In this document: piece after piece, positions 4,625 to 53,872 of the stretch | Numbering within the stretch: the first letter of the stretch is position 1 | Layout of the letters: every line of letters begins with the position of its first letter | Assembly (NCBI RefSeq): GCF_030028105.1 | Contig: NC_092378.1 | Coordinates: 107,559,731 to 107,623,730, forward strand | DNA from: Mobula birostris | Taxonomy: Eukaryota | Length of the DNA stretch: 64,000 nucleotides | Direction of reading: 5' to 3' | Notes under the pieces: generated by a model | Told to the model about the DNA's origin: nothing | Database searches by the model: none | Seen by the model: the letters and a program-made list of their open reading frames with translations, nothing else | Made by a program: the position numbers and the translations under genes

Positions 4625-5859
4625 TTAATGGTAGTTGCTGGAGAGAGCTTCTGTCACCAGTTTAAAAAACTTGTAGGCAGCTTCATGTTCCTCTGGTCCG
4701 AATCCTTTTTTATCACGAAGAGCGAGTTCAACAATGAAGGCCTGGCTGAGAAGCTGTGAAGAAAAACAATAATTATACAACACTGAAACTAAACTGGAAA
4801 GCAAAGCTCAAACCTCCAATGACTTCTTACCGAATAGCCCAGAAGTCCATGTTGTCCTCTGGGTCGATGTCAGTACTCAGTGGTGCAAACATATAAGTCT
4901 TTTCCCATATCCTTGCCTCATGTGCCCATCAAAGCCCTTTTGATTCTTTTTGACAAACAGTAGCTAATTAACCTGAAGGACAGCAAACTGGAGCAAACTC
5001 TCTACAGACAATACACAATGTGAGGATAATTTCAGCGTCCTTGGGGCAGTGAAGTCAAAAACAATTCTGCATCTGTTAGATGTTGAATAAAGGGAAATCA
5101 AAATCAACTCTCTGGAAAATTTCAAAAGGTCTGCCTTTTGCACAGTGAGCAGATGTGCTCTTTTTGCCTGCAGTTTAGTCCATGATGCTTGGTTGTCATG
5201 TTTGTTATAACTCTGTAATTGAGAAATATCTATAGCACTCCATTTATGAAAATTTGCACATCCTAGAAAGATTGGTGTTTACCTTGAAATTTTGAGTGTC
5301 CACTCCGATTGTTTGATGTTTACTGCTGAGATCATAGAAATTGGTTTCAATACTCTTCAAATCCTCAATTGCAGTGTTCAGAGCCTTCAGCACTTTGTCT
5401 GCATGAGCCTGAACACCAGGGTCACCGGCTGCAAAATGGCCATTGAAATTTTTAAATAGTCTGGTCGTCCAGGGATAGACCGCGAATACCCTAGGAAGAA
5501 AAAAACAAATTGTCCGGTTTCTGTTGTGATAACTTGGAGTTAATTAATTTCTCAAAGCTCATGATTTAGGACTTTTTGATCAAATAAAGAGTTGATTTTC
5601 TGTGGGTTTAACTAGAACCTCAGTGCAGTGTTGAATACTAATTCCCTCACCCAATGACAACATCTAGGCAAGCATAGCAAATTAAAGAGCCTTCACTGGA
5701 ACCATAGTTGAAAATACAGTGCATGATTTAAACATAAAACAGAAAATACATTTTCAACATACAGTACCTTGCCAAGGCTTGGGCAGTTATTGCTTTCTTA
5801 TCCAAATGGTCCCATTTGTTCATGATGTATTGTTCCTGAGCCTTTGTTAATTTCACCAT
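4625..5859 (-). CDS. hbb: Haemoglobin beta chain (copy 1), complement(join(4625..4753,5283..5490,5768..5859)), 142 aa
   Basis: Manual splice and translation gives [146 protein letters not shown] introns sit at canonical globin positions (phase 2, phase 0). It has the VYPWT motif, distal His60, proximal His89 and C-terminal YH. The short CD region (no D helix) is typical of chondrichthyan beta chains. Confidence 0.97.
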
Positions 5860-5929
5860 TTTGGCTGTTGAGCTCTCACTGTCACTGCTCACGCAAGAAA
5901 GCTGTGTTGATCTGGAGTTTTGCCTTCAC

Positions 5930-6005
5930 TTTTATAGGCTCTGAAATGGCTCATCTCAGGCTAAATCGTTACTGTAACAGGCTGATTACTTGATGGGTTG
6001 GGCAC
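5930..6005 (-). promoter_or_regulatory. beta-1 core promoter (TATAAAA 5930-5936; CCCAACCC box ~5995-6002)
   Basis: TATAAAA on the minus strand about 70 nt upstream of the ATG, at the same position as in beta-2. Confidence 0.75.
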
Positions 6006-9000
6006 ACTTTCCAAACGTGGGCTGCAACCCTTCTGTGTTTGTGTGTTAACACTTGCTGAACAATTGCTTGTCTGAGCCTCACTTCTGCCCATCCAACACG
6101 AAGAATAATTCTCCAATTTTGTCAAATATTAATTCAATACATTCATTTTCAAACTGTAGAACTCTCTCCTTGTTAATTGAAGTTCAGCTTTTACACTTTT
6201 TCATTAAATAATACTATTTTTCAAAAATTAATACATTTCTGATGTTGAAATTAAATCCATGACTATTATAATATAGCTTCACTAATGTTCTCATCTGTAA
6301 AGATATGGGATTGTAGCAATGGAAAACTTATGACAAACTTACATCAGTAAATTGAGACAAGATTATTTTGAAATACTGAGCTACAGCAATAATGTGCACT
6401 TCATGGTCCCTGGGGTCTTTCTGACTGATGACTCTGCTATCAAAGTTCACTGGGTAACTAATAGCAATTTGCATCGTCTGTGGGTAGTTTTATGAATTTG
6501 GTAAATGGACACATATGGACAAAGCTCTATTTCTGTTTTGCGTGTCCATTGAATAGAGAACCAGCCATGAGCATTCACGAATTACTGTAGGTGAAGTGTA
6601 AACATGAAAAGACCAATGAGGGAAAATGTGGGTTCACTACGAACAAAGATCGGAGACTTTATAATAGGAAATAATAAAATGGCAGAGGAACTAAACCAAT
6701 GTCTCCTGTCTGCTTAAGTATTGGATTTTCAATAGGCTTTCAATAAGGTTGTGTTCAGAAGATAAACAAGGACAGCTCACATAGAACTTGGGGGTCACTG
6801 TGTCCATTGAGAGTTGTTTAACAAATGGAAAACAGAGTAGAGAAACAGACCCCTCATGGATAGTCAGGCTGCAGCTAATGGGGTCCATCAGGGATCAGTG
6901 CTTTGACCCCAACATTTACAATGTCTGTTAACAGTTTATCTGAGAAGACCTGCTGTAACATTTCCAGATTTGCTGATGATAGAGAACTAATTGGGAATTT
7001 TCTGTTCAGACAGAACTAGAGTATGATATTCAATTCTGGTCACTCATCATTGGAAGGATGTGGAGGCCATGGGGAGGGTTCAGAAGAGGTTTACCAGTGT
7101 GCTGGCTGGATTGGAGGGAATGTGGTATAAGGACAGTGGACAGATGAGAGATGTTTTCACTGGAGTGGAAGAGGGGTAACCTGACAGAACTTTATAAAGT
7201 TATGAGAGGTTTCGATAGACTAGACAGCCAGTGTCTTATTGCCCAGGGTTCAAATGTCTACCACTGGAGGGCTGCATTTATCGTAAGACGGGGAAGTTCA
7301 ATAGGTTTTTTTTAACGGAGCGGTGAGTGTCGTTGCTGTGTTACCATGAGTGGTAGAAGAGGTAGATACGATAGAAGTGTTGAAGAGGCTCCCTGAAAGA
7401 CACATAAAGTGTACAGGGAATGAGGGATATGGATCACATGCAGGTAGAATGGATTAGATGTTGCTAGCTTAATTAGTTTGACTGAAGGGCCTTTTCCTGT
7501 CCTGTGTTGTTCTAGGTTCCAAAACCTTGGTGAAATAACAGAAATGCTATTGTACAAAATTTGATCTTTGCTTTCTAAAAAAGACATACTAGCTCTTAAG
7601 GTGAGCGCAAAGTTTCAAAGGACGGGTCAGAATATCAGATGTGGATGAAAAGCGCAGGTATAGATATAGCCACAAGTACAGCCTGAGCTGTTGAGTAATT
7701 CCAGCATTCTGTTTATGAGGTTTCCAGCATTTGCAAGTGGTTTTGATTGTCAGATGTGAGGGTGCTCACCACTGATAGCACAATGTTCAAATACATTTTC
7801 TACTCAGTAAATGAAGTAGCCCATGCCTTGATACAACAATCCTCATAAAACATTCTACTGTAAGTAGCCGGTATTATTCACATCAGGAAAGTACCAGGTA
7901 ACAACGATCTCCAACAAGATGTCATGCAGACATTGGTCCTTGTGTTCAAGAGCATTCTTATCATTGAGTCCCACCATCAACATCCTGGGCATCTCCACTG
8001 ACCAGGTTCCAAATTTGATCAGATACAGAACTACTCTGGGTGCGTGAACGGGGCAGACACTGGCTATGCAATAGCAAGAGACTCACTAATACCATGGTAA
8101 AAACTTTCCGACTTTCACCAAAGGTACAATTCTGCGTATGATAGAATACACCCCACTTGTCTGAATGAGGACGGCCCCATCAGCACAGAAGAAGCTGCTC
8201 ACCACCATCCACACTTACACACCAGCTTGCTTGAATGTTCCTCCATCAGCCATCCATGCACCCTGTCCTCTCCAGCCACTGCAGCAGTTGTTGCACAAAT
8301 CTGTCCACAACCCCAGCTTCAGCTGCTCTGCTTCTGTATTGTCCCTTTAAGAGACAAAACACAAGGGATCTATTGCTAAATTGATAAATCAGTTTGCTAT
8401 TGTCACATGTACTAAGATAGTCTGAAGCAATAACAGAATGCAGAATAAAGTGTTACTTTTACCAAGAAGATGCAGCGCAAGTTGACAATAAGTTTCAAGG
8501 CCACAATGAGGTAGATTGTGCAGTCGAGAGATCATCTCACTATGGTAATATTCAATACCCTTAGAACTGTGGGGTAGAAGCTGTCCTTGAGCCTACTTGC
8601 ATGTGCTTACAAGCATTTGTATTGTCTACCCTATGGGAGGATGAAGAAGAGAGCATGTCTGGGGTGAGTGGGGTCCTTAATTATGTTGGCTTCTTTAGCA
8701 AGGTGGCAAAAAATGTCGGTAGACTCCATGGAGAGGACGTTGGTTTTTGTTCTGTGCTAAATTTTGGTCACAACTCTGTATTTTCTGCTGATTATTGAGA
8801 GAACAGTTGCCACACCAACCTGTGATGCATTCTATGTTCTATCAATAAAAACTAGTGACGGTCGGATGGGACATGCCAGATTTCTGTAGCCTCCAGAAGA
8901 AACTGAGATTTCTTGGCCATGATGGAACTAGGAGCCTGTTGGTGATATTCACTCCTGGGAACTTGAAGCTCTCAACCTACTTGATCTCAACACCGATGAT

Positions 9001-9662
9001 ATAATCAGGTGTGTGTGCACCACCCACCCTCGTGAAGTCAATCACCAGCTCTTTTGTTTCACTGACATTGAGGGAAAGATTGTTGTCATGACAGAATGTT
9101 ATTAGACTCGTACTTTACTCAGCTTATTGTTACTTGAGATTCGGCTCACTGTGGTGGTATCATTTGTAATGATGGAGTTCGAGCAGAGCCTGACCACACA
9201 GTTGTGAGCGTACAGAGAGTAGAGTAGGGTATTGCTGATGAAGCCTTGTGGGGCACCAGTGTTGAGAATAAGGATGATGGAGGTAATGCTACCTACCCTT
9301 ACTGAGTGTGCTCTGTTGGTTAGGAAGTCAGGTTGTGAGCTGAAGACAGAGTAGTACTGTGAGATTGATGGACCTCTGTTCATGTGCTCATTCTGAAGCT
9401 GAAACAGCATGTTACAACTCTAGAGAGTCACCAGCATGATTTACAGTGGGACACATTACATACTGAGTCTATGTTTACTTGATTTAAATAACACTAGAGA
9501 GACATAGTTTACTAGTTTTGCACATGAAAATGCAGGAAAGGAATTTCTCAGAGTTGTTTCATTGTAAGTCAGAGGCTTTGCTTGGAGAAACTTCAGTGAG
9601 GAAGTTGACCAAGGGTCAGGTAAGATGAAGTGAGATCTTTTCCATCCGTCCATAGTCTTAGT

Positions 9663-9880
9663 AGCCGGCTGGTGGCGTAGTGGCATGAGCGCCGGACTTC
9701 GGAGCGAAGGCTCCCGAGTTCGAACTCAGCCGGCTCCCCAGGCACGCTTTCCATCTGTGCTGGGTTGAGCGTCAAGCTAGCAACTTGTAAAAAAAAATTG
9801 CCTGCTACAGAAACATCAACAGCAAAAAGTTGCTGGCCTATGCTCTCTCGTGAGTTTAGAAGGCAATTTCCTTTTCCTTC
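9663..9880 (+). mobile_element. tRNA-derived SINE with 10-bp TSD TAGTCTTAGT (9653-9662 / 9881-9890)
   Basis: Pol III A box TGGCGTAGTGG and B box GTTCGAACTC. The empty site TAGTCTCAGT is at 47281-47290 in copy B. Confidence 0.88.
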
Positions 9881-9964
9881 TAGTCTTAGTTGTTTAGGGA
9901 TGGCCGTCAGGACAGTTGTGCGTACACCCTGCAGAACGTGGAAGGTCAGGGAAACTTCCATGGT

Positions 9965-10826
9965 AACACACATCAAAGTTGCTGGTGAACGCAGCAGGCC
10001 AGGCAGCATCTCTAGGAAGAGGTACAGTCGACGTTATGGGCCGAGACCCTTCGTCAGGACTAACTGAAGGAAGAGCTAGTAAGAGATTTGAAAGTGGGAG
10101 GGGGAGGGGGAGATCCAAAATGATAGGAGAAGACAGGAGAGGGAGGGATGGAGCCAAGAGCTGGACAGGTGATTGGCAAAAGGGATATGAGAGGATCATG
10201 GGACAGGAGGCCCAGGGAGAAGGAAAATGGGGAGGGGTGTAAAACCCAGAGGATGGGCAAGGGGTATAGTCAGAGGGACAAAGGGAGAAAAAGGACAGTG
10301 AGAGAAAGAATGTGTGTATATAAATAAATAACGGATGGGGTACGAGGGGGAGGTGGGGCATTAGCGGAAGTTAGAGAAGTCAGTGTTCATGCCGTCAGGT
10401 TGGAGGCTACCCAGATGGAATATAAAGTGTTGTTCCTCCAACCTGAGTGTGGCTTCATCTTTACAGTAGAGGAGGCCGTGGATAGACATATCAGAATGGG
10501 AATGGGATGTGGAATTAAAATGTGTGGCCACTGGGAGATACTGCTTTCTCTGGCAGCCAGAGCATAGGTGTTCAGCAAAACAATCTCCCAGTCAGCATCG
10601 GGTCTCGCCAATATATAGAAGACTACATCGAGAAGACCGGACACAGTATATCACCCCAGCTGACTCACAGGTAAAGTGTCGCCTCACCTGGAAGGACTGT
10701 CTGGGGCGCTGAATGGTGGTAAGGGAGGAAGTGTAAGGGCATGTGTAGCACTTGTTCTGCTTACAAGGATAAGTGCCAGGAGGGAGATCAGTGGGGAGAG
10801 ATGGAGGGGACGAATGGACAAGGGAG
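9965..10826 (-). mobile_element. Penelope-like element 3' part (GIY-YIG endonuclease + 3' end) with 9-bp TSD TTCCATGGT
   Basis: Minus-strand translation FTCESAGVIYCVRSSRCSLLYIGETRC*LGDCFAEHL is GIY-YIG-like. TSD at 9956-9964 and 10827-10835; empty site at ~47357-47365. Confidence 0.88.
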
Positions 10827-12147
10827 TTCCATGGTTCCTGGTGATTATATCTGTGGGAGATGTGTTCAGTTGTGGTTCCTGACTGACTGCATAGAGTGAC
10901 TGGGGCTGTAGATGAAACAAAAGGATGAGATACTGCAGAGGGAATTGAGAGAGATGGGTAGAAAGTTAAAAAGTAGGAGCAGTAGGGTTATAATCCCTGG
11001 GTAACTCCATGTGCTGTGTTGTAGTGAAAAAGGGAATAGCAGGATAGGGCTGACGAATGTGGAGCTGATGAACTGGTGCAGGGCGACACACACCTCGAGA
11101 TGGTGGGATATCTTCCAGGACCGAGATCACTTTTACAAGAGGGACACATTGCAATAGGCTTCCTGATGGAGAAAATTGCTAGAATTACGTGAATGGATTT
11201 GAACAAGTTGAGCAGGATATGGATCCCAAAGTAGTTACGCAATCAATGAAAAAGCTGGAGTAAGTATAGAGGTTAAAGTGAAAAACTCCAGCCAGCAGGA
11301 GCAGGACAAAGAGCGAGGAAGGTCTGACAACCTAAACTGCAAGTAGCCTGATAGGCTGATGATTTCAGAGCACCTTTGGCATGTGGGATTGTGATATTAT
11401 ATCTCTTACAGAAACATGATACATTGAGTGGATATCATTTGTTTGGATTTTCAAAAAGCCTTTAACAAGGTCTGGCACACAATGCTGCTACTCTGGATAA
11501 GAGATAAAGTACAAGTATAGATAGAAATGTGGTTGATTGCCAGAAGTCAAAGATTGGGGATAAGATGGTGCTTTTCACAATGGCTGCTCGTAACTTTTGG
11601 AATTCCACAAGGGTCAGTGTTAGATTTCTGGCATTTCACCTTATACAATAATGATCTGGATGAAGAAAATTATGATGTTGTGGCTACATTTGATAAGTTG
11701 AAGAACAGGCAATATCCCAGAGACAGGAAGCCTGCAAAATGACCTGGAGAGGTTGGGAGGTTGGGCAAAGAATAAGCAGATGGAATGTAGAATAGGAAGT
11801 GTGGGGTTATACACATTGGTAGGAAGAACAAAAGACTATTTTGTAAATGAGGAGAAAATTCAGAAAGCAGAGGTGTAAAGTTACTTGCGATTCCTAATCC
11901 TGAATTCCCTCAAGGTTAATTTACAGGTTGAGTTAATAGCAAACAAGACAAGTGCAATATTAACATTCATTTTGGGAGGATTAGAATATAAAAACAGATA
12001 CGTAATGCTGAGGCTTTATAGTCATGCAGAATGATGCAAGAACCTCAGGCACATATATGTATAGCTAGGGTGTCAAAGGCTTTTGCAAAGGACTGTATTT
12101 CTCAATAAGGAGCAGAGAGCAAGTTTGTGGATCTCGAGGAACTAATA

Positions 12148-12968
12148 TCAGAATTAGAATCAGGTTTATTGTCACCAGCATGAGAAGTGAAATTTGTTAA
12201 CTCAGCGGCAGCAGTTCAATGCAATACATAATCTAGTGGGGGAAAAAGAATAATAATAAATAAAATTTTAAAAAATAAACAAATAAATCAATTACGTATA
12301 TTAAATTCATTTTTTAAAAACATGCAAGAACAGAAATACTGTGCATTTTTTTAAAAAGTGAGGTAGTGTTCAAAGATTCAATGTCCATTTAGGAATCGGA
12401 TGGCAGAGGGGAAAAAGCTGTTCCTGAATTGCTGAGTGTGTGCCTTCAGGCTTCTGTACCTCCTACCTGATGGTAACAGTGAGAAAAGGGCATGCCCTGG
12501 GTGCTGGAGGTCCTTAATGATGGACACTACTTTTCTGAGACACCGCTCCCTCAAGATGTCCTGGGTACTTTGTAAGCTAGTACCCAAGATGGAGCTGACT
12601 AGGTTTACAACCTTCTGCAGCTTCTTTTGGTCCTGTGCAGTAGCCCCTCCATACCAGACAGTGATGCAGCCCGTCAGAATGCTCTCCACGGTACAACTGT
12701 AGAAGCTTTTGAGTGTATTTGTTGAATTGCCAAATCTCTTCAAACTCCTAATAAAGTATAGCCACTGTCTTGCCTTCTTCATAACTACATCAATATGTTG
12801 GGACCAGGTTAGATCCTCAGAGATCTTGACACCCAGAAACTTGAAGCAGCTCACTCTCTCCACTTCTGATCCCTCTATGAGGATTGGTATGTGTTCCTTC
12901 GTCTTACCCTTCCTGAAGTCCACAATCAAGTCTTTCGTTTAACTGACGTTGAATGACAGGTTGTTGCT
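12148..12968 (-). mobile_element. Rex1/Babar-like LINE 3' fragment, copy A only
   Basis: ORF 12378..12929 (IVDFRK..FKFLGV..LYFIRSL..HPGH..LPSGRR) with a TCTGAT-type tail; absent at ~48480 in copy B. Confidence 0.8.
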
Positions 12969-14375
12969 GCAATTTTGGGTCCTTTCTCCAAGGAAGGGTG
13001 TAGTAGATTGGAAGGGATCCAGAAATGCATAAGAAAGGTCTTAGGAATAAATGGCTTGACATTTGAGAAGAGTTTGATGTCTCTGAGCCTGTACTCAGTG
13101 GTGTTCAGGAGGATGAGGGGCTATCTCAATGAAAACTATCAGAGACTGAAAGGCCTGGACAGAGTGGATGTGGAGAGAATGTTTCCATTAGGAGGAGATA
13201 CTTGGATCCAAGGGCATGCCCTCAGAATTTAGACTTGTCCCTTTAAAAGAGCTAAGGAGGAATTTCTTCAACCAAAGTGTAAAAAGAGGACATGGGATAT
13301 CCTTGACAGATAAGGTGGAGATGATTCTTCACAGGTTCTGTGCATATTAATGGAAAAAGGGGAAAAGGCAGTGAGTATTTCCCCTTTAGGATCAGTGCAG
13401 CAAAGTATGTCGGGGTTACAAATGAAGGATAAAGTTTTAGATGTGTATTCTCATCTGTACTTACTGTGGCAAAGGATATGAAACCGGGTAAGTTTAGGGA
13501 AATTTTCAATGATATTCTGAAGCATTTTGAAGTATAAAAGAGGAGGCAATTGCAGATGAAACTCAAAATAGTCTATATATCCCCAAGATACTGATATCAA
13601 GCTGCTCTGGTCACAGAAAGATAATTTGCATCTTTGAGTGGACTTCCAGCAATTGCATTGCAGGAAATTTTGGAATTACTTAAACCAACTGAACGGTCCA
13701 TCAGTGTTCCAGATTGGAAAAATGAATTCCTCTATTCATAATGATCTTGAAAAAGACAATAATGATGATTTTATCGCATTTAAAATTGGATGTTGAATTC
13801 TTATAACGTGATTGAATATATTAATATAAAAACATAACAAAATACTTTTTCAGGATTAAGTTTTAAGGAGAGCCTGAATTACCTTTCACATTTTCCCTGG
13901 ACTGTAGGAGACTGAGGGGTGAGCTGACAGAGTTGTATATGATCATGAGGGCATAAATGGATGATCATAGTCTTTATCCGAGTGTAGGGGAGTCTAAAAC
14001 TGAACAATGTGGTTATCTGGTGAAAGGGAAAAGATTTAAAAGACATCTGGCAGGAAAACTTCTTCTCACAGAGAGGTGAGTGTAATAAATTTGGTGGGAG
14101 AACAGGCTGTAGAAACAGGAACAAAGTGAGGAAATGGGACTAGGTCAGACAGACATTGGTAGGCATGGATGAGCTTGGCTGAATGGCCTGTTTCCATATT
14201 GAACAACTCTGCAACTCTATTTATCTATATTTTACATGTAAAGCTTGCTTTATGCAGTGAGTCATGATATGTTGCTGAATGTATAAACGTGTTACAGCGA
14301 GATTTTGATCTCCTATTTCAGTTATTTGCTTTTCAGAAATCTCTGCTGTGAACTTGATTCATTTAGAATGGGGAA

Positions 14376-17300
14376 AGGTACAGATAGGAGGTTCTGTGGT
14401 TGTGACAGAGAATCCAGGATGGTTTGTTCCCTCCCAGGTGCCAGGGTCAAGGATGTCTCTGATCGATTGCATGACATTCTGAAGTGGGAGGGTGACCAGC
14501 CAGATGTCATGGTGCACATTGGTACCAATGACGTAGCAAGGAAGAGTGAGGAGGTCCTGGACAGTGAGTATAGAGAGCTTGGTAGGAAGTTGAAAAGCAG
14601 GACCTCAAGGGTGGTAATGTCAGGATTGCTACCTGTGCTCGGTGCCAGTGAGGGTAGGAATAGGATGCTCTGGAGGAGGAACAAGTGGCTGAGGAACTGG
14701 TGTAGGGGGCAGGGTTTCAGATTTCAGGATCATTGGGACCTATTCTGGGGCAGGTGGGACCTGTACAAGAGAGACGGGTTACACTTGAACTACAGGGGGA
14801 CCAATATCCTTTCAGGGAGGTTTGTTAGTGCTATTGGGAAGGCTTTAAACTAGATTTGCAGGGGGATGGGAACCAGAGTGCCAGAGCTGACAGTGTGGCT
14901 GGGGTGAAAATAAATGATGTTGAAAGTTTAAGCAAATCCGCTGATAGAAAGGTTGTGAGTGGTGGTAAAAATCTTCTGAGGTGTATATATTTCGATGCTA
15001 GGAGTATTGCGGGGAAGGCGGATGAGTTGAGGGCGTGGATTGACACGTGGAATTATGATGTTGTAGCATTAGTGAAATTTGGCTACAGGAGGGGCAGGAC
15101 TGGCAGCTTAATATTCCAGGGTTCCGATGTTTCAGATGTGATCGAGGCAGAGGAATGAAAGGTGGGGGAGTAGCGTTGCTTGTTAGGGAAAATATTACAG
15201 CAGTGCTCAGGCAGAACAGATTAGAGGGCTTGTCTACTGAGTCCTTATGGGTGGAGCTGAGAAACAGGAAAGGTATGGCCACATTAGTGGGATTGTATTA
15301 CAGACCACCCAATAGTCAACGAGACTTGAAAGAGCAAATCTGCAGAGAGATAGCAGGCAATTGCAGGAAACATAAAGTTGTGGTGGTAGGGGATTTTAAT
15401 TTTCCATACATTGATTGGGACTCCCATACTGTTAGGAGTCTAGATGGTTTAGAGTTTGTAAAATGTGTTCAGGAAAGTTTTCTAAATCAATATATAGAGG
15501 GACCAACTAGAGAGGATGCAATATTGGATCTCCTGTTAGGAAATGAATTAGGGCAAGTGACAGAAGTCTGTGTAGGGGAGCACTTTGGTTCCAGTGATCA
15601 TAACGCCATTAGTTTCAATTTGATCATGGACAAGGATAGATCTGGTCCTAGGGTTGAGGTTCTGAACTGGAAGAAGGCCAAATTTGAAGAAATGAGAAAG
15701 GATCTAAAAAGCGTGGATTGGGACAGGTTGTTCTCTGGCAAAGATGTGATTGGTAGGTGGGAAGCCTTCAAAGGGGAAATTTTGAGAGTGCAGAGTTTGT
15801 ATGTTCCTGTCAGGATTAAAGGCAAATTGAATAGCAATAAGGAACCTTGGTTCTCAAGGGATATTGCAACTCTGATAAAGAAGAAGAGGGAGTTGTATGA
15901 AATGTATAGGAAACAGGGGGTAAATCAGGTGCTTGAGGAGTATAAGAAGTGCAAGAAAATACTTAAGAAAGAAATCAGGAGGGCTAAAAGAAGACATGAG
16001 GTTGCCTTGGTAGTCAAAGTGAAGGATAATCCAAAGAGCTTTTACAAGGGTATTAAGAGCAAAAGGATTGTAAGGGATAAAATTGGCCCTCTTGAAGATC
16101 AGAGTGGTCGGCTTTGTGTGGAACCAAAGGAAATGGGGGAGATTTTAAATAGGTTTTTTGCGTCTGTATTTACTAAGGAAGCTGGCATGAAATCTATGGA
16201 ATTGAGGGAATCAAGTAGTGAGACCATGGAAACTGTACAGATTGAAAAGGAGGAGGTGCTTGCTGTCTTGAGGAAGATTAAAGTGGATAAATCCCCAGGA
16301 CCTGACAGAGTGTTCCCTCGGATCTTGAAGGAGACTAGTGTTGAAATTGCGGGGGTCCCGGCAGAAATATTTAAAATGTCGCTGTCTACGGGTGAAGTGC
16401 CGGAGGATTGGAGAGTGGTTCATGTTGTTCCATTGTTTAAAAAAGGATCGAAAAGTAATCCGGGAAATTATAGGCCGGTGAGTTTAACGTCAGTAGTAGG
16501 TAATTTATTGGAGGGAGTACTAAGAGACAGAATCTACAAGCATTTGGATAGACAGGGGCTTATTAGGGAGAGTCAACATGGCTTTGTGCGTGGTAGGTCA
16601 TGTTTGACCAATCTGTTGGAGTTTTTCGAGGAGGTTACCAGGAAAGTGGATGAAGGGAAGGCAGTGGATATTGTCTACATGGACTTCAGTAAGGCCTTTG
16701 ATAAGGTCCCGCATGGGAGGTTAGTTAGGAAAATTCAGTCGCTAGGTATACATGGAGAGGTGGTAAATTGGATTAGACATTGGCTCAATGGAAGAAGCCA
16801 GAGAGTGGTGGTAGAGAATTGCTTCTCTGAGTGGAGGCCTGTGACTAGCGGTGTGCCACAGGGATCAGTGCTGGGTCCATTGTTACTTGTCATCTATATC
16901 AATGATCTGGATGATAATGTGGTAAATTGGATCAGCAAATTTGCTGATGATACAAAGATTGGAGGTGTAGTAGACAGTGAGGAAGGTTTTCAGAGCCTGC
17001 AGAGGGACTTGGACCAGCTGGAAAAATGGGCTGAAAAATGGCAGATGGAGTTTAATACAGACAAGTGTGAGGTATTGCATGTTGGAAGGACAAACCAACG
17101 TAGAACATACAGGGTTAATGGTAAGGCACTGAGGAGTGCAGTGGAACAGAGGGATCTGGGAATACAGATACAAAATTCCCTAAAAGTGTTGTCACAAGTA
17201 GATAGGGTCATAAAGAGAGCTTTTGGTACATTGGCCTTTATTAAGGTATTGAGTATAAGAGCTGGAATGTTATGATGAGGTTGTATAAGGCATTGGTGAG

Positions 17301-17857
17301 GCCGAATCTGGAGTATTGTGTTCAGTTTTGGTCACCAAATTACAGGAAGGATATAAATAAGGTTGAAAGAGTGCAGAGAAGGTTTACAAGGATGTTGCCG
17401 GGACTTGAAAAACTCAGTTACAGAGTAAGGTTGAATAGGTTAGGACTTCATTCCCTGGAGCGTAGAAGAATGAGGGGAGATTGGATAGAGGTATATAAAA
17501 TTATGATGGGTATAGATAGGGTGAATGCAAGCAGGCTTTTTCCATTGAGGCAAGGGGAGAAGAAAACCAGAGGACATGGGTTAAGGGTGAGGGGGGAAAA
17601 GTTTAAAGGGAACATTGGGGGGGCTTCTTCACACAGAGAGTGGTGGGAGTATGGAATGAGCTGCCAGATGAGGTGGTAAATGCAGGTTCTTTTTTAACAT
17701 TTAAGAATAAATTGGACAGATACATGGATGGGAGGTGTATGGAGGGATATGGTCCGTATGCAGGTCAGTGGGAATAGGCAGAAAATGGTTCGGCACAGCC
17801 AAGAAGGGCCAAAGGGTCTGTTTCTGTGCTGTAGTTTCTATGGTTCTATGGTTCTAT
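14376..17857 (+). mobile_element. Young 5'-truncated CR1 LINE: partial ORF1 (SGNH esterase) + ORF2 (APE endonuclease-RT) with ~3 frameshifts; (TTCTATGG)n tail
   Basis: ORF1 has GTND and DGLHLN motifs. ORF2 has GDFN, SDH, FSKAFDKVPH, GVPQGSVLGP and FADD, with a 706-aa open stretch at 15155..17275. Empty site at ~52615-52630 in copy B. Confidence 0.95.
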
Positions 17858-18072
17858 AAGTAATTGCCATACAAACAGACAATTGTTGGCTCAATGTTTT
17901 TATGTCCAAGTTCTTTCTCCACTTTATTGTTATCAAGTGATAGTGGTAAACACACCCTGCAGTATTGTTTGTTTTCTTGCTAATAGACAAATTGACAGGT
18001 ATTTTTTCTGAAATTAAGTACATTTAATACATTCATGCACAGCAAGCGATAAAGCATTGATTGAAGTGAAAG

Positions 18073-18078
18073 TTTATT
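18073..18078 (-). terminator. alpha-1 polyadenylation signal AATAAA
   Basis: About 100 nt downstream of the stop; conserved in alpha-2. Confidence 0.7.
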
Positions 18079-18174
18079 TAACTCAGTTTTTCAATTATGA
18101 CAATTAATCAAAGACAAACTGTGGAATTAAATGATGATCTTGTGGTCGTTCATCAAAATTTGTTGGTTGTGTCT

Positions 18175-19127: not shown

Positions 19128-19193
19128 CATTACAGAGTTCTCACTTTTTCAGATCTCTCATTGACCAGGAGATGCCTCTGGCTTGATGTGTCC

Positions 19194-21180: not shown

Positions 21181-21181
21181 T

Positions 21182-37722: not shown

Positions 37723-37728
37723 TTTATT
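37723..37728 (-). terminator. beta-2 polyadenylation signal AATAAA
   Basis: Homologous to the beta-1 signal. Confidence 0.65.
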
Positions 37729-39230: not shown

Positions 39231-39300
39231 TTTGGCTGTTAACCTGTTACTGTCACTACTCGCACAAGAAAGCTGTGTTGATCTGGAGTTTGGACCTCAC

Positions 39301-39471
39301 TTTTATAGGCTGCAATAAGGCTAATCTCAGACTAACACTCAAATGTAATAGGTTGACCACCTGATGGGTTGGACACACTTCCCAAAAGTGGGCAGCAAAG
39401 CTTCTGTATTTGTGTGTTAAGATAAACACCTGCTGATCAATTGCTAGTCTGAGCCCCAATTCTGCCTATCT
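39301..39471 (-). promoter_or_regulatory. beta-2 promoter (TATAAAA 39301-39307; GATA sites 39420-39425 and 39466-39471)
   Basis: TATA box about 70 nt upstream of the ATG plus two WGATAR matches. Confidence 0.75.
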
Positions 39472-43500: not shown

Positions 43501-45067
43501 GTTTTCATGCAAGGAGGTCAACTGTCGACATGATTTTCTCACTCCATCAACTCCAAAAGTGCAGGGAACAACAGAAACCCCTCTATGTCACTTTCATCGA
43601 CTTGACCAAGGCATTCGGCCTTGTCAGCAGGGATGGGCTCTTTCAGATTCTCCTCAAGATCGGCTGTCCCCCGAAACTCCAAAGTATCATCAAGTCATTC
43701 CGTGACGGCATAAGGGCTACTGTTCAGTACGATGGCAGCTCATCAGAACCCTTCGCTATTCGTAGTGGAGTCAAACAAGGATGCGTGTTGGCCCCAACAT
43801 TATTCAGCATCTTCTTCTCTCTGCTATTGAAGCACGCGTTTGGGACGACGACAGAATGTATCTACGTGCACAGCAGGTCTGATGGGTAGCTGTTCAACCC
43901 TGCGTGCCTGAGAGCATGAACAAAGGTGCGAAAGATCTTAATACATGACATGCTCTTTGCCGAAGACGCTGCTATAACCTCGCACACCAAACTCTCATGG
44001 ACCGCTTCTCTAAGGCAAGCAACAACTTCGGGCTTACCATCTGCCTAAAGAAAACAAATGTCCTTGCCCAGAATGCAGTGGAGACACCAGTCATTACCAT
44101 CGACAATTACGATCTAGAAGTGGTCCACGAGTTCACATACTTGGGGTTGACCATTGGTGACACTCTCTCCCTCGATGCTGAAATCAATAGGCGTATCAGC
44201 AAAACAACACCAATCCTTGCTCGACTCTCCTTGCGGGTCTGGGTGAATCCGAAACTCACTACAAAGACCAAGACTGCCTTGTACAATGCCTGTATTATCA
44301 GCATCCTCCTGTATGGTAGCGAGACTTAGGTAGGCTGGTCTTGGACTTATTTCCTGGCATAATTTACATATTACTATTTAACTATTTATGGTTTTATTAC
44401 TATTTATTACTTATAGTGCAACTGTAACGAAAATCAATTTCCGCCGGCATCAATAAAGTATGACTACTCGGAACAGGAGAAGAAACTCAATAGTTTTCAC
44501 CTGCACAGCTTTCGCCGCATTCTCTGCATCACCTGGAGAGACAAAGTCCCAAACTCTGAGGTCCTCTCCTGCGCTGGATTTCCCACAACGTTCACGCTTT
44601 TAAAGGAACGTAGACAGTGCTGGCTGGACCACGTCTGTCGTTTGAAGGATGGTAGACTGCCAAAGGACATCCTCTACAGTGAACTGGCAACAGGCAAGAG
44701 GAACGTTGGTAGACCCGAGCTTCGCTTCAAGGACCTCTGCAAGCACGCCATGAAAGCCTTAAAAATCAACAGCGAGTGCTGGGAGGATACGGCAGATGAC
44801 AGCAACAAATGGTGAGGTGCTCTTCAGCAGCACCTAGAGCAAGGCGAAAGAGTGATCCTGAGTCAGTCTGAGGAGCGGAGAGCTAAATGGAGAGCACAGC
44901 AGACAGCAGACAACAATTCCACGATGCCCTACTCATGCAGCAACTGTGGCAGAGCCTACCATTCCAGCATCGGCTTCAACAGCCACAGTCAACGCTGCTC
45001 GACAAGCCAGTAACTACCAGAGGCGCAGTACCCATGGTCAACCATGACCAACGGAGGCCACATGCAG
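40597..45067 (+). mobile_element. Near full-length decayed RTE-clade LINE with 9-bp TSD AGATAGGGT (40588-40596 / 45068-45076), copy B only
   Basis: Long 5' UTR; APE domain (LQE, VYAPT, LGDFN, DTDH); RT (FIDLTKAF, GVKQGCVLAPTLF, LFAED); C-terminal Cys/His motif CSNC..H...C. Empty site at ~7210-7225 in copy A. Confidence 0.92.
41523..41944 (+). mobile_element. Rex/Babar-like 3' fragment nested in the RTE
   Basis: Splits the RTE codons LQE|TCLADSG; has IIKDTTHPAN..LSGRRLR and an AATAAA + (AAGTAT) tail. Confidence 0.75.
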
Positions 45068-48000
45068 AGATAGGGTAGGCAGGCAGTCTTCTTGCCCAGG
45101 AATGAAATGCTTGGGAGGCAATGCATTTAAGAGAAGAGAGGGAAAATCAAAAGAAATGTATAGCACTGTTGTTACATGTACAGGAAAGTGTTGGGTTCCT
45201 GTAATGTGTTACCATGGGTGATACGATAGAGGTGTTGAAGACGCTCTCAGAAAGATGCATGAATGCGCAGAGAACGAGGGATATGGACAACATGCAGGTA
45301 GAATGGATTAGATATCACTAGCTTAGTTAGTCTGGCTGAAGGGATTTTTTTCTATCTTGCACTGTTTTAGGTTCTAAAGCCTTGGTAAAATAACAGCTAT
45401 ACTATTGTACATAATTTTGGCCCTGCTGTCTAAAAACGACATGTTCGCTTGTAAGAAGTGCTGTAAAGTTTCAAAGGACTGGTCAGAATATCACATGTGG
45501 GATAAAATCACACAATAATAATAAACCAACAAGCTAATTTTCCAATTTAATTCAGAGAAGGTTGGAAATACTCGGGGGGTCAGGTCACATCTGTGAGATT
45601 TCTTCTTTCTCAGTCTGACCTATTGAGTAATCCCAGCATTCTGTTTGTGAGCTTTCCAGCATTTGCAAGTGGTTGTGATTGTCAGATGTGAGGCTGCTCA
45701 CCACTGATAGTACAATGTTCAAATATATTTTCTACTCAGCAAATGAAGTAGCCCATGCTTGATACAACAATCCGCACGCTACATTCTGCCATAAGTAGCT
45801 GGTAACATTCACATCACCCAAGTGCCAAGTAACAAGGATCTCAAGGATGTCCAGCAAGATGCCATGCAGACATTTGTCCTTGTGTTCAAGAACATTATTA
45901 TCATTGAGCCCCACCATCAACATCCTGGGAGTCACTACTGTCCGAGTACCAAACTGGATCAGCTACAGAACTGCTTTGGACCGACGTCTGGTTATGCAAT
46001 GGTCAGTGTCTGGTTATGCAATGGCAAGTGATTCACTTATACCTCAATAAGAACTTTCCAACTTCTAAAGGTACAATTCTGCAGTGTGATGGAATACTCG
46101 CTAATTGCCTGAATGAATGCTTCTCCCTCATCACTCAAGAAGCTCGACACCATTCAGCTTGGACACCAGTTTGCTTGAATATTCCCCGATCAGTCGTCCA
46201 TGCAGCCTGTCCTCTCCAGCCACTGCCCACACTGCTAGGTGCATAACAACAGAATCCAGAATAGAGTGTTACTGTTACTGAGAAAATGCAATGCAAGCTG
46301 ACAGTAAGATTCAAGGCCGCAGTGAGGTAGATTGTGAGGTCAAGACATTATCCTACTAGGGTACTATTTAATGCCCTTATAACAAGCTGAACAGAAGTTG
46401 TCCTTGAACTGAGTAGGATATACTTTCAAACATTTATATCTTCTGGCCTATGGGAGGTCTTTGATTATTCTGACTTCTTCGTCAGAGCAGCAAAAACTGT
46501 TGACAATATCCATGGAAACACTGGTGCTTTCCATGGACAAAAATGCTGGTTTTTATTCTATGTTAAACTTTGTTCACAAACCTTTGCATTTTCTGGCGAT
46601 TATAGGGAGAGCAGTTGCCATATCAACCTGTGATGCATCTGGATAGGATGCATTCTATGGTGTATCAATAAAATCTAGTGACAGTCAGATGGGACATGAC
46701 AGATTTCTTTCGCCTTCAGAAGAAACTGAGATTTCTTAGCCATGATGTCTACATGGTTGAACTAGGAGCCTGTGGGTGATATTTACTCCTGGGAACTTGA
46801 AGCTCTCAACCTACTTGATCTCAACACCGTTGATGTAATTAGGTGTGTGTGCACTACCTACCCTCGTGAAGTCAATGACCAGCTCTTTTGTTTCACTGAC
46901 ATTGAGAGAAAGATTGTTGTCATGACAGCATGTTACTAGGCTCTTACTTTACTCAGATTGTTTTTATTTCAGATTCAGCTCACTGTGCTGGTATCATTTG
47001 TAAACTTGTAGCTGCCCTCTGTTCATGTGTTCATTCTGAAGCTGAAGCAGCATGCTACAACTCTAGAGAGTCACCAGCACGATTTACAGTGAGGCGCATT
47101 AGATACCAAGCCTACATCTACTTGATTTAAATAGCACGAGAGAGACATACATTGCTAGTTTTGCACACAAAAATGCAGGAAAGGAATTACTAGAATTTTT
47201 TTTCATTGTAAGTTTGAGGCTTTTGTGAAGATGCTGAGCATTGGTTAGGTAAGGCGAGGTAAGATCTTTCCATCCATCCATAGTCTCAGTGGTTTAGAGG
47301 TGGCAGTCAGGGCAGCTGTGTGCTCATCCTGCAGAACATGGGAAGGTCAGGGAAGCTTCCATGGTTCCTGGTGATAATACTTGTGGGAGGTGTGCTCAGT
47401 TGCAGCTCCTGACCAACTGCATAGAGTGACTGGGGCTGTAGATGAATCAAAAGGATGAGATACAGCAGAGGGAATTGAGAGAGATGGGTAGAAGTTTAAA
47501 AAGTAGGGACAGTTGGGATGTAATCTCTGGTGTCCTAGTGAAGATGGGAATAGCAGGATAGGGTTGATGAATATGTGGTTGATGAACTGGTGCAGGATCA
47601 ACAGACACCTCGGAATGGTGGGATAGCTTCCAGGACAGAGGTTACTTGTACAAGAGAGATACGTTTCAATAGGCTTCTTGGCTGAGGCAATGGCTAGCGT
47701 TACTTGGATGTGTTTGAACAAGTTCAGCAGGATATGAATCGTAAAGTGGTTATGCAATCAATGAGAAAACTGGAGTAAATATGAAGTTTCAAGTGAAGAA
47801 ATCCAGTCAGCAAGGTCAGGACAAAGAGTGAGGAAGGTCTGATCACCTAAGCTGCAAGTAGCCTGACAGGCTGATGATCTCGGAGTATCTTTAGCATGTG
47901 GGATTGTGATATTATATCTCTTACAGAAACATGATACATTGAGTGGATAGCATTTGCTTGGATCGTCAAGAAGCTTTTAAAAAGGTCCGGCCCTCAATGC

Positions 48001-49989
48001 TGCTATTCTGGATAAGAGATAAAGTACAAGTATAGATAGAAACGTGGTTGATTGCCAGAAGTTAGAGAGTGGAGATAAAGGGATACTTTTCAGTATGACC
48101 ACTGGTGACTTTTGGAATTCCAAAGAGGTCAATTTTAGAATTGAAGCTTTTCACTTTATACATTAATGATCTGGATGAAGAAACAGATGATAATGTGGCT
48201 ACGGTTGAGGAGAAAATTCAGAAATCAGAGGTGTAAAGTTACTTGAGAGTCCATGTTCAGCGTTCCCTCAGGGTTAGCTTGCAGCTTGAGTGAATAGTAA
48301 AGAAGGCAAATGCAGTGCCAGCATTCCAGTTTTGGAGGATTAGAATATAAAACTAAACAGAAAATGTTTTGTAAGTCATGCTGTACTGTACAAAAGTCTC
48401 AGGCATACATATATAATTAGGGTGCCAAAGACTTTTACGGAGTATCATATTTATCAACATGGAGTGGAGAATAGCAACATTGTGAGCAATTTTGGGCCCT
48501 GTTTCTCAGGAAGGGTGTACTAGCTTGGAGGGGGACCAGACACTCACAAGAATGAAAGGCTTATTACATGAGGAGTGTTTGATATCTACATAAGGAGTGT
48601 TTGATATCTCTGGGCCTGTACTCAAAGGAGCTCAGAAGTGTAATGAGATATCTTAATGAAACCTATTCAATAATGAAAGGCCTGGATAGAGTGGATGTGG
48701 TGAGGATGTTTCCATTGTTACGAGACACTGGGATGCAAAGGCATGCCCTCAGAATAAAGGCTTGAATTTTTAAAAGAGATTAGGAGGAATTTCTTCAGCC
48801 AGAGAGTGGTGCTGATGTGGAATCTGTTGCTAATGGAGGCTGCAGAGGCCAATTTGTTGGGTGTATTTGGGGCTGATAGATTCTAATTCCATCATGGACA
48901 GTCAAAAGCTCGGCTAAGAAAGGAGGAGGGTTGGGATGGGGCTAGCAACCCCATACAGTAAATAATCCAGAGCTACAGAAATGGCAACAGGGGTTTTAAG
49001 TACCTCATCCCTATAAAGGAAAGAAACATCAAGAAGGTGGACTACACCTGAGAATAACTTGAAAGACAGGCCCAGGACACAAGACTCTGGTGAGCTACTA
49101 ACGATGACCTGTGCCTCAGTAAGGGTGATGGGCTTAAGCTGATAGGTACTTGATTAGTAAAGAGGTTTCTTGTTATGGAGAGAAGCAGAAAACTGAGATG
49201 GAGAACAATCAGCCATGATTGAATGGTGGAGAAAACTTAAAGGGTTGAGTAGCTTAACTCTGCTCCTATATCCAAGAATGAAAGGGTTATCATATGAGGA
49301 ATGTTTGATAGCTCTGGGTCTGTACTCTCTGGAATTTAAAAGGTTGAAGGGGAATCTCATTGAAACCTTTTGAATGTTGAAAAGCCGAGACAGAGTAAAT
49401 GTGTCTCATCGATGGTTCCTATGGTGGGGGAGTCTAGGACAAGAGGGCACAGGATAGAGAGGTATTCATTTAAAACAGAGATGTGGAGACATTTCTTTAG
49501 ACAGAGGATGGTGAATTTGTAGAACTTGTTACCACAGGCAGCTGTGGCGGTCAGGTCGTTGGGTGTATTTAAGGCTGAGCTTGATAGGTTCTTGGTTGGA
49601 CAAGGCATCAAAAGTTACAGGGAGAAGAACGGGGAGTGAGGCTGAGTTAGGGAGGAAAGGATCAGCCATGTTTGAATAGTGGAGCAGTCTTGATGGTCCA
49701 AATGGCCTAATTCTGATCCTGTGTCTTCAGGTCTTATGGTCTTATATTAATCTTATGGTTGAGGGATGGTCAGGACTGGTAGTTCAATTTTGCAAAGTAT
49801 CATTCTTCCAGTGTGAGAAAGGTGGAATTAAGAGAGAAAGGTGGGATATGATATTGATTAGGAGGAACATCACATAAGTATTTACAGTGGATATTCCAGG
49901 GAAAAGATGCTGTAACTTCATGTAGGTAAAACTAAAAAATCAGAAAAGTGTAACAAGTCTGATGGGATGTTCTACAGTGCCCCCAACAT

Positions 49990-50990
49990 TCCATAAAACC
50001 ATAAGATGTAGGAGCAGAAGTAGGCTATTCAGCCCATCGAGTCTGCTCCACCATTCAATCATGAGCTGATCCAATTCTTCCAGTCATCCCCACTCCCCTG
50101 CCTTCTCTCCATATCCTTTGATGCCCCAGCTAATCAAGAACCTTTCTATCTCTGCCTTAAATACACCCAATGACTTAGCCTCCACAGGCGCACATAGCAA
50201 CAACTTCCACAGATTTAGCACCCTCCAACTAAAGTAATTTCTCCACATCTCTGTGTTAAGTGGACAACCTTCAATGTTGAAGTAGTGCTTTCTTGTCCTA
50301 GACTCCCCTACCATGGGAAATAACTTTGCCATATCTAATCTGTTCAGGTCTTTTAACATTTCGAATGTTTCTGTGAGATCCCCCCCCCTTATTCTCCTGA
50401 ACTCCAGGGAATACAGCCCAAGAGCTATCAAACGCTCCTCATACGGTAACCCTTTCGTTCCTGGAATCATTCTTGTGACTCTCCTCTGGACCCTCTCCAA
50501 TGTCAGTAAATCTTTTCTAAAATAAGGAGCCCAAAACTGCACACAATACTCCAAGTGTGGTCGCATGAGTGCCTTGTAGAGCCTCAACATCACATCCCTG
50601 CTCTTATATTCTATATCTCTATAAATGAATGTCAACATTGCATTCACCTTCTTCACCACGAACTCCACCTGGAGGTTAACCTTTAGGGTATCCTGCACAA
50701 AGACTCCCAAGTCCCTTTGCATCTCTGCATTTTGAATTCCCTCCCCAACTAAATAATAGTCTGCCAGTTTATTTCTTCCACCGAAGTGCATAACCATGCA
50801 TGTTCTACATTGTATTTCATTTGCCACTTCTCTACCCATTCCCCTAAACTATCTAAGTCTCTCTGCAGGCTCTCTGTTTCCTCAACACTACCCACTCCTC
50901 CATCTATCTTTGTATCATCGACAAATTTAGCCACAAATCCATTAATCCCATAGTCCAAATCATTGACATACATCATAAAAAGCAGCAAGG
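49990..50990 (-). mobile_element. CR1 LINE 3' fragment
   Basis: ORFs 50084..50839 and 50749..51006 (AKFVDDTK, RPHLEYCVQFW). Confidence 0.85.
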
Positions 50991-52837
50991 GGCAAATATG
51001 TAGCAAAACCCAAGTTAGTGATAGAAATGATAGGGCTATAATAGTAGGTCATTGTAACTTCCCTAATGTTGACTGGTGTTGCACAGTGCAAAGGGATTAG
51101 GTGCAGTAGAAGTTTATAAAAGTTGTAAAAGTGAGTTTTCTGAAGCAATATGTAGTTGGCTCTATTAGGGAAGGAGTTACACTTGACATCAGTAGACAAT
51201 GAATCTAGGCAAGTAGCTGAAGTGTTAATGGTGGGACACTTCAAGACATTTGTGGAAAGGGTTAGTACTAGTTCAAAGGTTAACGTTCTCTTTGGGGCAA
51301 AACTAATTTTGATGGAATTGGGAGACGCTGCAGCAAGTAAAGGGTCATCTGGCAATTGGGAGGCTTTTAAAAGTGAGGCACAGAGTTCAGAACCAACACA
51401 TTCCATTTAAAGTGAAGGGAATGGTTTGCAGTATTAGGGAACCTGAGGAATATTAAGGGTCTCGGTAAAGGCAAAGAATGTCAGATTTAGGCAACTGGGA
51501 TCGAATATGAGTCCATAGAAGAGTATAGGGGATGTAGGAGTGCACTTCGGATGGAAATCAGGAGGGTGAAAGGAGGATATGGGATGTCCTTGACAGAAAA
51601 GATGAAGGTGAATTCCCACAGTTACTACGTATATTAAAGAAAAAGGGGAAAAAGCAGAGATATGAAACCTGGTAAAACCTGGAAAATTTCAATGATATCC
51701 TGAAGCATATTGATATACAAAAGAGGAGACTTTTGCATTTGAAGCTCCTGATAGTGTATATAACCCCAAGACACTGATATCAAGTTGCTCTGATCACAGA
51801 AGGAAAACTTGCATCGCAGTGTAGACTTCCAGAAGATATATTGTAGGAGATTTCGACGGTACTTAAACCAATTGAATGGTCCAATTTCAGCATTCTAGAT
51901 GGGAAAAGTGAATTTCTCTATCTATAATGAATTTGATAGAGATAATAATGATGATTTGGCTCATGTCTATCAGTGGATGTTGAATTTTTATAACTATATG
52001 ATCAGGTATTTAAAATTGCATTGGTAACTCTGATTTGGAAAGCAAAATTCTTTTTCAGGGATTAAGTTTTGAGGAAAGCCTAAATTGGCTTTCATTTTAC
52101 CCCTGGAATGTAGGAGTCTGACTTGACATAGGTGCATAAAATAGTGAGGGGCATAAATTGACAGTCATAGCCTTTATCTGAGTGTTGGGAGTCTAAAACT
52201 AAACAGCGTAGATTTATGGTGAGAGGGAAACAATTTACAAGTAGATGAGGGGAAACTTTTTCCACACAGAGTGGAGGGTATATGAAATGAGCTGGGAGAG
52301 CAACTGTGGGGACAGGTATAATTACACTGTGGAAGAGGCATTTAAACATTTCCACAGTTAGAGATGGTTTAGATGGATATGGACCAAACATGTGAAAACA
52401 TGAGTGACTAGGTCAGGTAGACATTGGTAGGCATGCATAAGTTGGACTGAATGGCCTGTTCCATGTTGTACAACTCTACAACTCTATTTATCTATATTTA
52501 TGTGTAAAGCTTGCTTTGAGTTGAATGTATAAAAACCATTGGGAGAGATATCGATCTCCCATTTCAGATGTTTTGCTTTTCAGAAATCTCTGTTGTGAGC
52601 TTGATTCATTTACAATGGGGCAAAAAGTAACTGCCAGCCAAAGAGATATTTGTTGGTTCAATGCTTTTATATCCAAGGTCTTTCTCCTTTTTATTGTTAT
52701 CCGGTGATAGAGGTAAACAGATCGTGCAGCATTTTTGGTGTTTTTGCTAATGACATATCTGACAGGTATTTTTCTGAAATTAAGTCTATTTAATAAATCA
52801 GCCACAGCAAATGATAAAGCATTGATTGAAGTGAAAG

Positions 52838-52843
52838 TTTATT
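52838..52843 (-). terminator. alpha-2 polyadenylation signal AATAAA
   Basis: Homologous to the alpha-1 signal. Confidence 0.7.
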
Positions 52844-52933
52844 TAGCTCAGTTTATCAAATATGACAATTAATCAATGACAAAATGTGGAATTAAATGAT
52901 GATCTTGTTCACCGTAGTTTGTCGATTGCGTCT

Positions 52934-53872
52934 CTAACGGTACTTGGAGCTCAATTCATGTGCGAGCAACTCAAGGAACTTGTCGACAGCACAGTGGGTT
53001 GCAGGGGTGAACGCAGGCAAGTGAATGGCCAGGGTAACTGTGATACAATCAGCCAACAGCTGTAAAAGTGAAAAATAAATAACACAAGGCGGTGTTAGTA
53101 TTGTCAAAGGATGATTTTACCCATTAAACAAGTGTTGCTTGTTTGTACTTTGACTGCTTTCCTATGTATAGTGTTGCAGGAAAAAGTATTCTCCGCTAAC
53201 CTGAATAAGATTACACTTCTAGACTGCTAAAATTTCAACTAAATAAAGTTGCTGATCTAATCACTATATCATAGTTTGTATAATGACAATGACAAAGAAT
53301 CTGTAAAATTGTTATATACCTGAAAGTTATGAGGATCCACAAGAAGTTCTTCACCATGTTTCTTGGCAAGCTTTTCCAGGTGTTTACTCAGATTGTCCAC
53401 GTTATGGGCTGCATCCGCCACAGCTTCCATTACCAAGTGACCATGTCTTCTGACAGGCAGATCAGAGGCTTTGTAGCCATTGAATTTCGGGAAGTACGTC
53501 TTAGCTTGAGGATGGATCTCAAACAACCTTCAGAAACATGGAAAATGAAGGCAGAAATTATTTGCAGACACAATGTACACCACATCTCACCGAGAATTGA
53601 ATTCTTTTATTCTTCAGACCAGCAATCACATTATTTTGGAAAATCTTCAATTCTATGCGGAGATTGTTATAGTGCATCTTTAATGGTCTCACAGTGCAAG
53701 GGAAATGCATGGAATGTTATCAATTACAAATAATAGCTGAAAATGCAATATTAATTGTGTGAATCTAAGAAAATTACCTGGCTAAAGCATCGGCTCCCCA
53801 AGCTTCAGCATTTGCCTTGATGTGGTGGCCCAGTTCTTCTATAACCTGTTTGTTGGGGCCAGAGAGTACCAT
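52934..53872 (-). CDS. hba: Haemoglobin alpha chain (copy 2), complement(join(52934..53059,53320..53527,53778..53872)), 142 aa
   Basis: Translation: MVLSGPNKQVIEELGHHIKANAEAWGADALAR/LFEIHPQAKTYFPKFNGYKASDLPVRRHGHLVMEAVADAAHNVDNLSKHLEKLAKKHGEELLVDPHNFQ/LLADCITVTLAIHLPAFTPATHCAVDKFLELLAHELSSKYR* (TAG stop). Exon sizes 95/208/126 match copy 1. Confidence 0.97.

Follow-up and report, generated by a model that had tools for sequence, protein, structure and literature searches.

We characterized two alpha-beta haemoglobin gene cassettes within a 64,000-nucleotide stretch of the giant manta genome (Mobula birostris, contig NC_092378.1, positions 107,559,731 to 107,623,730; the window hereafter). The four genes lie on the minus strand and are transcribed in the order alpha2, beta2, alpha1, and beta1. 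They are real, intact and largely known already. New are a breakpoint in intron 2 of the beta genes, which would make one of the betas a hybrid, and the parallel orientation of the two cassettes, both of them details of a known kind.

Globin genes of the window

Alpha2 occupies positions 52934-53872 (exons 53872-53778, 53527-53320, and 53059-52934), beta2 37929-39230 (exons 39230-39139, 38874-38667, and 38057-37929), alpha1 18175-19127 (exons 19127-19033, 18782-18575, and 18300-18175), and beta1, the candidate hybrid, 4625-5859 (exons 5859-5768, 5490-5283, and 4753-4625). Every gene comprises three exons and two GT-AG introns (phase 2 and phase 0), with a 429-nt coding sequence for 142 amino acids and no internal stop. 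These models agree with a first-pass annotation of the locus in the number, intactness, strand and order of the genes, and reproduce its counts of 7 residue differences between the alphas and 12 between the betas; the uninterrupted open reading frames that it described are in fact divided among three exons each. All four predicted proteins matched annotated M. birostris globins with 0 differences (alpha2 to P0050, beta2 to P0035, beta1 to P0028, and alpha1 to P0045 after the first Met of that entry). Alpha1 has two consecutive in-frame ATGs, the extra one at 19128-19130, one codon upstream, where the database model starts (143 amino acids); alpha2 has a single start ATG. Contigs of sequencing run X9 skip both alpha1 introns exactly and those of run X20 also skip intron 2, which backs the gene model and not expression of the window copy, as both runs are from other organisms. 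No fifth globin exon, intact or decayed, was found by tblastn within the window (top non-gene match, E value 0.038).

The Pfam Globin domain was detected in all four products (scores, 75-99 bits; cut-off, 22), and searches with exon 2 returned Mobula and stingray haemoglobins. The distal and proximal His and the CD1 Phe are kept, at positions that we take to carry these helix labels (His60, His89, and Phe43 in the betas; His60, His89, and Phe44 in alpha2). Window alpha and beta chains align full-length and without gaps to the red stingray haemoglobin 1cg5, and the D-helix deletion of the betas appears as a gap of 4 residues when they are aligned with beta-type chains of bird and human, whereas the alignment with 1cg5_B has none. 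The ratio of nonsynonymous to synonymous substitution (dN/dS) was 0.13 for the alpha pair and 0.28 for the beta pair. Judged from their sequences, the two cassettes are genuine paralogs on which purifying selection acts, and because the genes are also intact and retain the globin residues, their four products are haemoglobin chains of the ordinary cartilaginous-fish kind.

Among the seven residues that distinguish the alphas, two (R62H and I63L, at alpha2 residues 62-63) come shortly after the distal His60, and the His count is 12 in alpha2 and 10 in alpha1. Beta2 has cysteines at 53 and 113, and beta1 has none. Cys53 is common to many stingray betas; Cys113 (38019-38021) is Arg in beta1 and in both Mobula hypostoma counterparts, and corresponds to a CpG at which C became T. 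At beta codon 113, the X9 and X20 contigs carry only His-type letters, unlike both window betas, a comparison in which the organisms differ, the RNA status of the runs is guessed and contigs drop variants. The two cysteines of beta2, together with its lower predicted isoelectric point (pI; 7.94 vs. 8.75 for beta1), should make the beta1 and beta2 products separable. In predicted mass the two betas are ~50 Da apart and the two alphas ~11 Da.

A breakpoint within beta intron 2

Self-alignment, suggested as a check by the first-pass annotation, placed positions 1-19810 against 32506-54567 as a collinear direct repeat spanning both genes and their spacer; of the 19,810 bases on the left side, 13,479 are shared. 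That annotation had described collinear repeats with a period of ~32.5 kb; the collinearity holds, and the single period does not, as offsets range from 32,505 to 38,268 (33.3 kb for the beta genes, 34.8 kb for the alpha genes) and 32.5 kb is true only for the leftmost block. Since position 1 aligns to 32506, the repeated block continues past the left edge and the window lacks part of the array.

Kimura two-parameter (K2P) distances between the copies fall into two classes, 0.03-0.08 (young) to the left of a step in beta intron 2 and 0.13-0.21 (old) to its right. The old homology block, at 5127-19810 in cassette 1 and 38519-54567 in cassette 2, comprises the 5′ part of beta (K2P 0.152), the alpha-beta spacer (0.214), alpha (0.126) and ~0.7 kb upstream. 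On the young side, a near-identical tract (3657-4996 and 36972-38300; K2P 0.031) holds the end of beta intron 2, exon 3, the 3′ untranslated region (UTR) and flank, with ~99% identity over 4100-4753. Beyond it lies a young duplicated 3′ flank (1-3658 and 32506-36160; 92% ungapped identity, K2P 0.082), of which the first copy is cut by the window edge. Inside the young block, the beta2 flank has approximately 810 bases (36160-36972) that the beta1 flank lacks.

The step itself maps to a zone at 4940-5127 in beta1 intron 2, with the best change point at 4952 and a counterpart at ~38250-38520 in beta2 intron 2. Mismatches between beta1 and beta2 drop across position 4952 from 189 of 1362 aligned columns (13.9%) to 34 of 1284 (2.6%), giving a chi2 of 108 that none of 300 permutations reached (maximum, 18.8). 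Up to late intron 2, the introns and promoter of the two betas are 78-85% identical; past the step, identity is 94.7% in the rest of intron 2, 99.2% in exon 3, 99.0% in the 3′ UTR, and 98.7% and then 95.5% in the flank. No comparable step occurs between alpha1 and alpha2, which are 84-95% identical throughout. A beta gene thus contains the sharp switch of ancestry by which an anti-Lepore-type hybrid is recognized.

The proteins show the same division. Exons 1-2 of beta1 differ by 4 residues from manta beta 586 (numbers of this form refer to protein accessions), the closest 5′ partner, whose position is inferred from accession order; they differ by 6 from 593 and 597 and by 11 from beta2. Exon 3 of beta1, by comparison, is 1 residue from beta2, 4 from 586, and 3-5 from other betas. 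Informative sites in exons 1-2 vs. exon 3 were 10:3 vs. 0:3 for the manta trio (p 0.036) and 12:1 vs. 0:4 for the M. hypostoma trio (p 0.002). Moreover, the exon 3 proteins of M. hypostoma 468 and 470 are identical, so that the breakpoint reflects neither an assembly artefact nor haplotigs and the exchange either predates the split of M. birostris and M. hypostoma or recurred in the latter.

History of the cassettes

The window is probably a slice of an array with five or more alpha-beta cassettes, two of which are visible, because the manta accessions listed (XP_072125584 to 595; 588 and 596 are not among them) alternate beta and alpha. Accession order equals physical order for the four window genes, and similar alternation occurs in the accession series of M. 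hypostoma and Hypanus sabinus. The unit is one alpha followed by one beta 13-14 kb downstream on the same strand. According to the available text of Walt et al. (2026; PMC13023373), from which all statements on that survey are drawn, the giant manta repertoire of 20 alpha and 9 beta genes is the largest among the 22 cartilaginous fishes surveyed, and the window genes match by eye its gene IDs 140203428-140203431. The (alpha-beta)x2 cluster of the first-pass annotation is therefore too small a unit, given these gene counts and the at least five pairs implied by accession order.

The history that we favor, and consider reasonably probable, combines an old tandem array, an unequal crossover in beta intron 2 and later conversion, leaving near-equivalent isohaemoglobins that add dosage. 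The array would have grown by repeated unequal crossing-over, and an old tandem duplication would have parted alpha2-beta2 from the 5′ parts of alpha1-beta1, now seen as 13-21% divergence. A younger exchange, whose edge is observed in beta intron 2, would have followed. Its likeliest form is a mispairing of beta2 with the beta of the adjoining downstream cassette and a crossover in intron 2, which would have duplicated ~33 kb, a segment made up of exon 3 of beta, the flank, one alpha, and exons 1-2 of beta. Beta1 would thereby be a hybrid of the anti-Lepore type, its exons 1-2 derived from the lineage of the downstream beta and its exon 3 and 3′ flank from beta2, and later conversion may have polished ~650 bp around exon 3 to 99%.

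Such a crossover predicts a breakpoint, a young block leaving the window, alpha1 near 587, and beta1 exons 1-2 near 586, each at ~0.4 of the old divergence. All four are present, the closeness to 587 and 586 weakly so. Between alpha1 and alpha 587 there are 3 residue differences, compared with 7 between alpha1 and alpha2; Ser119 is limited, among 12 Mobula alphas compared, to 587, 590, and their M. hypostoma counterparts. The young/old ratio is ~0.4 throughout (DNA, 0.082/0.214; alpha, 3/7; beta exons 1-2, 4/11). The first 5 kb of the presumed duplicated intergenic segment is duplicated, the remainder lying beyond the window. Likewise, one edge of the young tract is within the window, and its 99% core falls to 92-95% and not to the old divergence.

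Several points weigh against this history. Alpha1 is equally 3 residues from another manta alpha, P0038, and the exon 1-2 protein tree does not resolve beta1 vs. 586; in general, the trees separate species pairs and not the order of duplication. Third partners 584, 593, 595, and 597 give tables of informative sites similar to that of 586 (p 0.05-0.47), because beta2 exons 1-2 are far from all paralogs, and beta1 is accordingly a candidate: another of the betas may be the hybrid. The crossover also implies a sister copy of the 19811-32505 spacer, in a segment to the left of the window and outside the sequence examined; gene order beyond the window is deduced from accession numbers.

The main rival is a long conversion without duplication: in an old tandem array, the likeness of the betas would stem from at least one tract of 5 kb or more exchanged between beta1 and beta2, with either gene as recipient. 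This is conceivable, and we consider it clearly less probable than the crossover. Identity is layered as conversion might leave it, with 99% at 4100-4753, 95.5% at 3657-4099, and 92% beyond (patchy, 83-98% per 200 bases), and the far end of the young block lies beyond the window. In addition, gene conversion is among the causes that Walt et al. (2026) consider possible for species-specific clades, and the stingray alphas group in a clade by themselves (100/99), an arrangement expected under concerted evolution or family-specific turnover. However, divergence stays below the old level for 5 kb, and conversion alone gives no reason for alpha1, and likewise beta1 exons 1-2, to have the nearest relative in the next cassette by accession, at a ratio that matches the flank.

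A single clean duplication of one cassette, yielding a two-cassette cluster with one embryonic and one adult haemoglobin, is very unlikely. It would account for the collinear homology across both genes and the spacer, and the predicted beta pI values differ as noted above; red stingray embryos also express more paralogs than later stages (Walt et al., 2026). Nonetheless, one clean event does not fit, because there are two divergence levels with a sharp step, and together with the 20 alpha and 9 beta genes of the species these levels refute a two-cassette cluster of single origin. What stands of the whole-cassette duplication proposed in the first-pass annotation is that alpha and beta were duplicated together, head to tail; its attribution of the DNA to a ray was also correct. 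The division of the cassettes into embryonic and adult types is without support: compared by eye, both window betas fall inside one young expanded clade apart from the 1cg5-type beta, and the survey finds timing to be unrelated to position in the cluster and cites studies in which isoforms were very similar in function.

Misjoined alleles or haplotigs, or a chimeric assembly behind the 97% tract, are extremely improbable: exon 3 and the 3′ UTR are indeed ~99% identical and no contig piece among those listed spans all of 18100-38099, but the 13-21% non-coding divergence, the separate M. hypostoma counterpart of each beta (591 with 470, support 99/98; 589 vs. 468, 4 residues), and the exon 3 protein shared by those counterparts refute such readings through a second species, so that the cassettes emerge as paralogs on the very point that the first-pass annotation had named as its own possible refutation.

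The spacer between beta2 and alpha1 (19811-32505) has no collinear partner in the window, and its matches to 54568-64000 are all repeats; farther than 0.7 kb upstream of the alphas, 7 repeat matches were the sole homology found. In a search for a second spacer copy, contigs of 4 of 24 listed sequencing runs were aligned to 18100-38099, a comparison resting on 32 pieces and 40 differences among many thousands, in which contig depth gives no copy number. Run X2, which may be the source of the window itself and not independent, gave exact pieces with 0 differences over 1452, 476, and 1036 bases. Among the pieces listed, its others were ~93-98% identical within the spacer, matched nothing else in the window, and lay mostly in high-copy repeat bins. 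A young short interspersed repeat (89-94%) is present in three copies (9965-10497, 26088-26605, and 61563-62014), at very high depth in all four runs.

Each alpha-beta spacer has its own long interspersed nuclear element (LINE) on the plus strand. The LINE at 14287-17679, found only between alpha1 and beta1, contains an ORF1-like frame followed by a 738-codon open stretch (15059-17275) with endonuclease and reverse-transcriptase domains, and is presumably CR1-like by its resemblance. A second, fragmented LINE at 40600-45200, found only between alpha2 and beta2 (RVT_1 at 43497-43886), is one that we take to be RTE-like by the same kind of resemblance; it explains much of the shift in offset from 33.4 to 37.9 kb.

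The exon 3 of stingray betas P0036, P0037, and P0007 resembles that of manta 586 and 597 and not that of their exon 1-2 relatives, a hint that exon 3 may have been exchanged among beta paralogs in stingrays too. Orthology across families between beta2 and stingray 6003/654 is suggested by exon 2 residues common to them by eye, but the trees group the stingray genes together, so that such orthology is at most a candidate relation.

Expression, function, and comparison with known clusters

A putative promoter precedes alpha1 (19128-19320, minus strand), with GATA at -162, CCAAT at -122, CACCC at -108, and an ATAAA box at -75 from the ATG, and the same arrangement precedes alpha2 (53873-54065); we assigned these motifs by what we take to be their usual definitions. 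A motif scan of the window for cassette-local enhancers gave 0 NF-E2/MARE (Maf recognition element) and 0 CTCF-like matches, and no GATA clusters common to both cassettes occur in the old block. The 17 loose GATA/E-box matches in the window were obtained without a control run. Walt et al. (2026) report that the cluster is flanked by GbY, Aanat2, Rhbdf1, and Luc7l, with Nprl3 unlinked. In their survey, most paralogs are expressed in red stingray embryos and fewer at later stages, and few dominate in the adult manta, where the RNA data cover six adult tissues, without blood or embryo. Cluster position had no predictive value for the timing of expression, and isoforms studied so far were functionally very similar in the work they cite. 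By analogy, the window chains probably mix into near-equivalent isohaemoglobins, and from the stingray pattern it is likely that they add gene dose, more in embryos than in adults.

The G and H helices, which pack against alpha, derive from exon 3. It is imaginable, although we find it doubtful, that selection in devil rays maintains a homogenized beta exon 3 and 3′ UTR across neighboring cassettes, and that mosaic betas whose haem-pocket and surface halves differ, one beta having two cysteines, could freely pair with any alpha. This would provide tunable fetal haemoglobins for an embryo without placenta, each cassette depending on local regulatory elements with Nprl3 unlinked.

That alpha-beta pairs are the unit by which shark and ray clusters grow was already described in the 2026 survey (PMC13023373). 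The window adds the mechanism at base level, in that the breakpoint shows the beta paralogs to be mosaics; as a consequence, whole-protein trees and read counts from pseudo-alignment would blur both orthology and expression. It also offers a history, open to testing, of a single step in the largest globin expansion surveyed, and nothing new for biochemistry. A literature search, with most subscription papers outside its scope, found no paper on globin recombination in manta or devil rays or on ray fetal haemoglobin besides PMC13023373, whose main text contains neither "crossing" nor "breakpoint," and "chimeric" only in reference titles.

Among known systems, the red stingray haemoglobin (PDB 1cg5/1cg8) is the best structural relative of the window chains, gapless for alpha and beta. 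Its beta nevertheless belongs to another paralog clade: it matches red stingray 140735592, and the manta counterpart appears by eye to be 140203419. We presume 1cg5 to derive from adult blood.

In the cluster described by Walt et al. (2026), the co-linear alpha-beta pair is the basic duplicated unit in cartilaginous fishes, as in the window, and some duplications are common to the giant manta as well as to the lesser devil ray. In contrast, expansions there are attributed to anti-parallel duplication of the pair, whereas the two window units are parallel, both on the minus strand as direct repeats; this comparison covers the two units of the window, the rest of the cluster being outside the sequence examined, and the text layer of their figure S11B does not include manta among the species named. 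The MN and LA clusters of teleosts likewise have interspersed alpha and beta genes and grew by tandem duplication, in the available text of Opazo et al. (2013; PMC3525417). The closest parallel to the candidate hybrid is the anti-Lepore HBB/HBD fusions of laurasiatherian mammals, in which unequal crossing-over or conversion between tandem betas produced a hybrid beta-type gene (Gaudry et al., 2014; PMC4041002, available text). Unlike the mammalian parents, which are typically inactivated or deleted, the presumed manta parents are both intact, and the duplicated manta segment would also carry an alpha gene.

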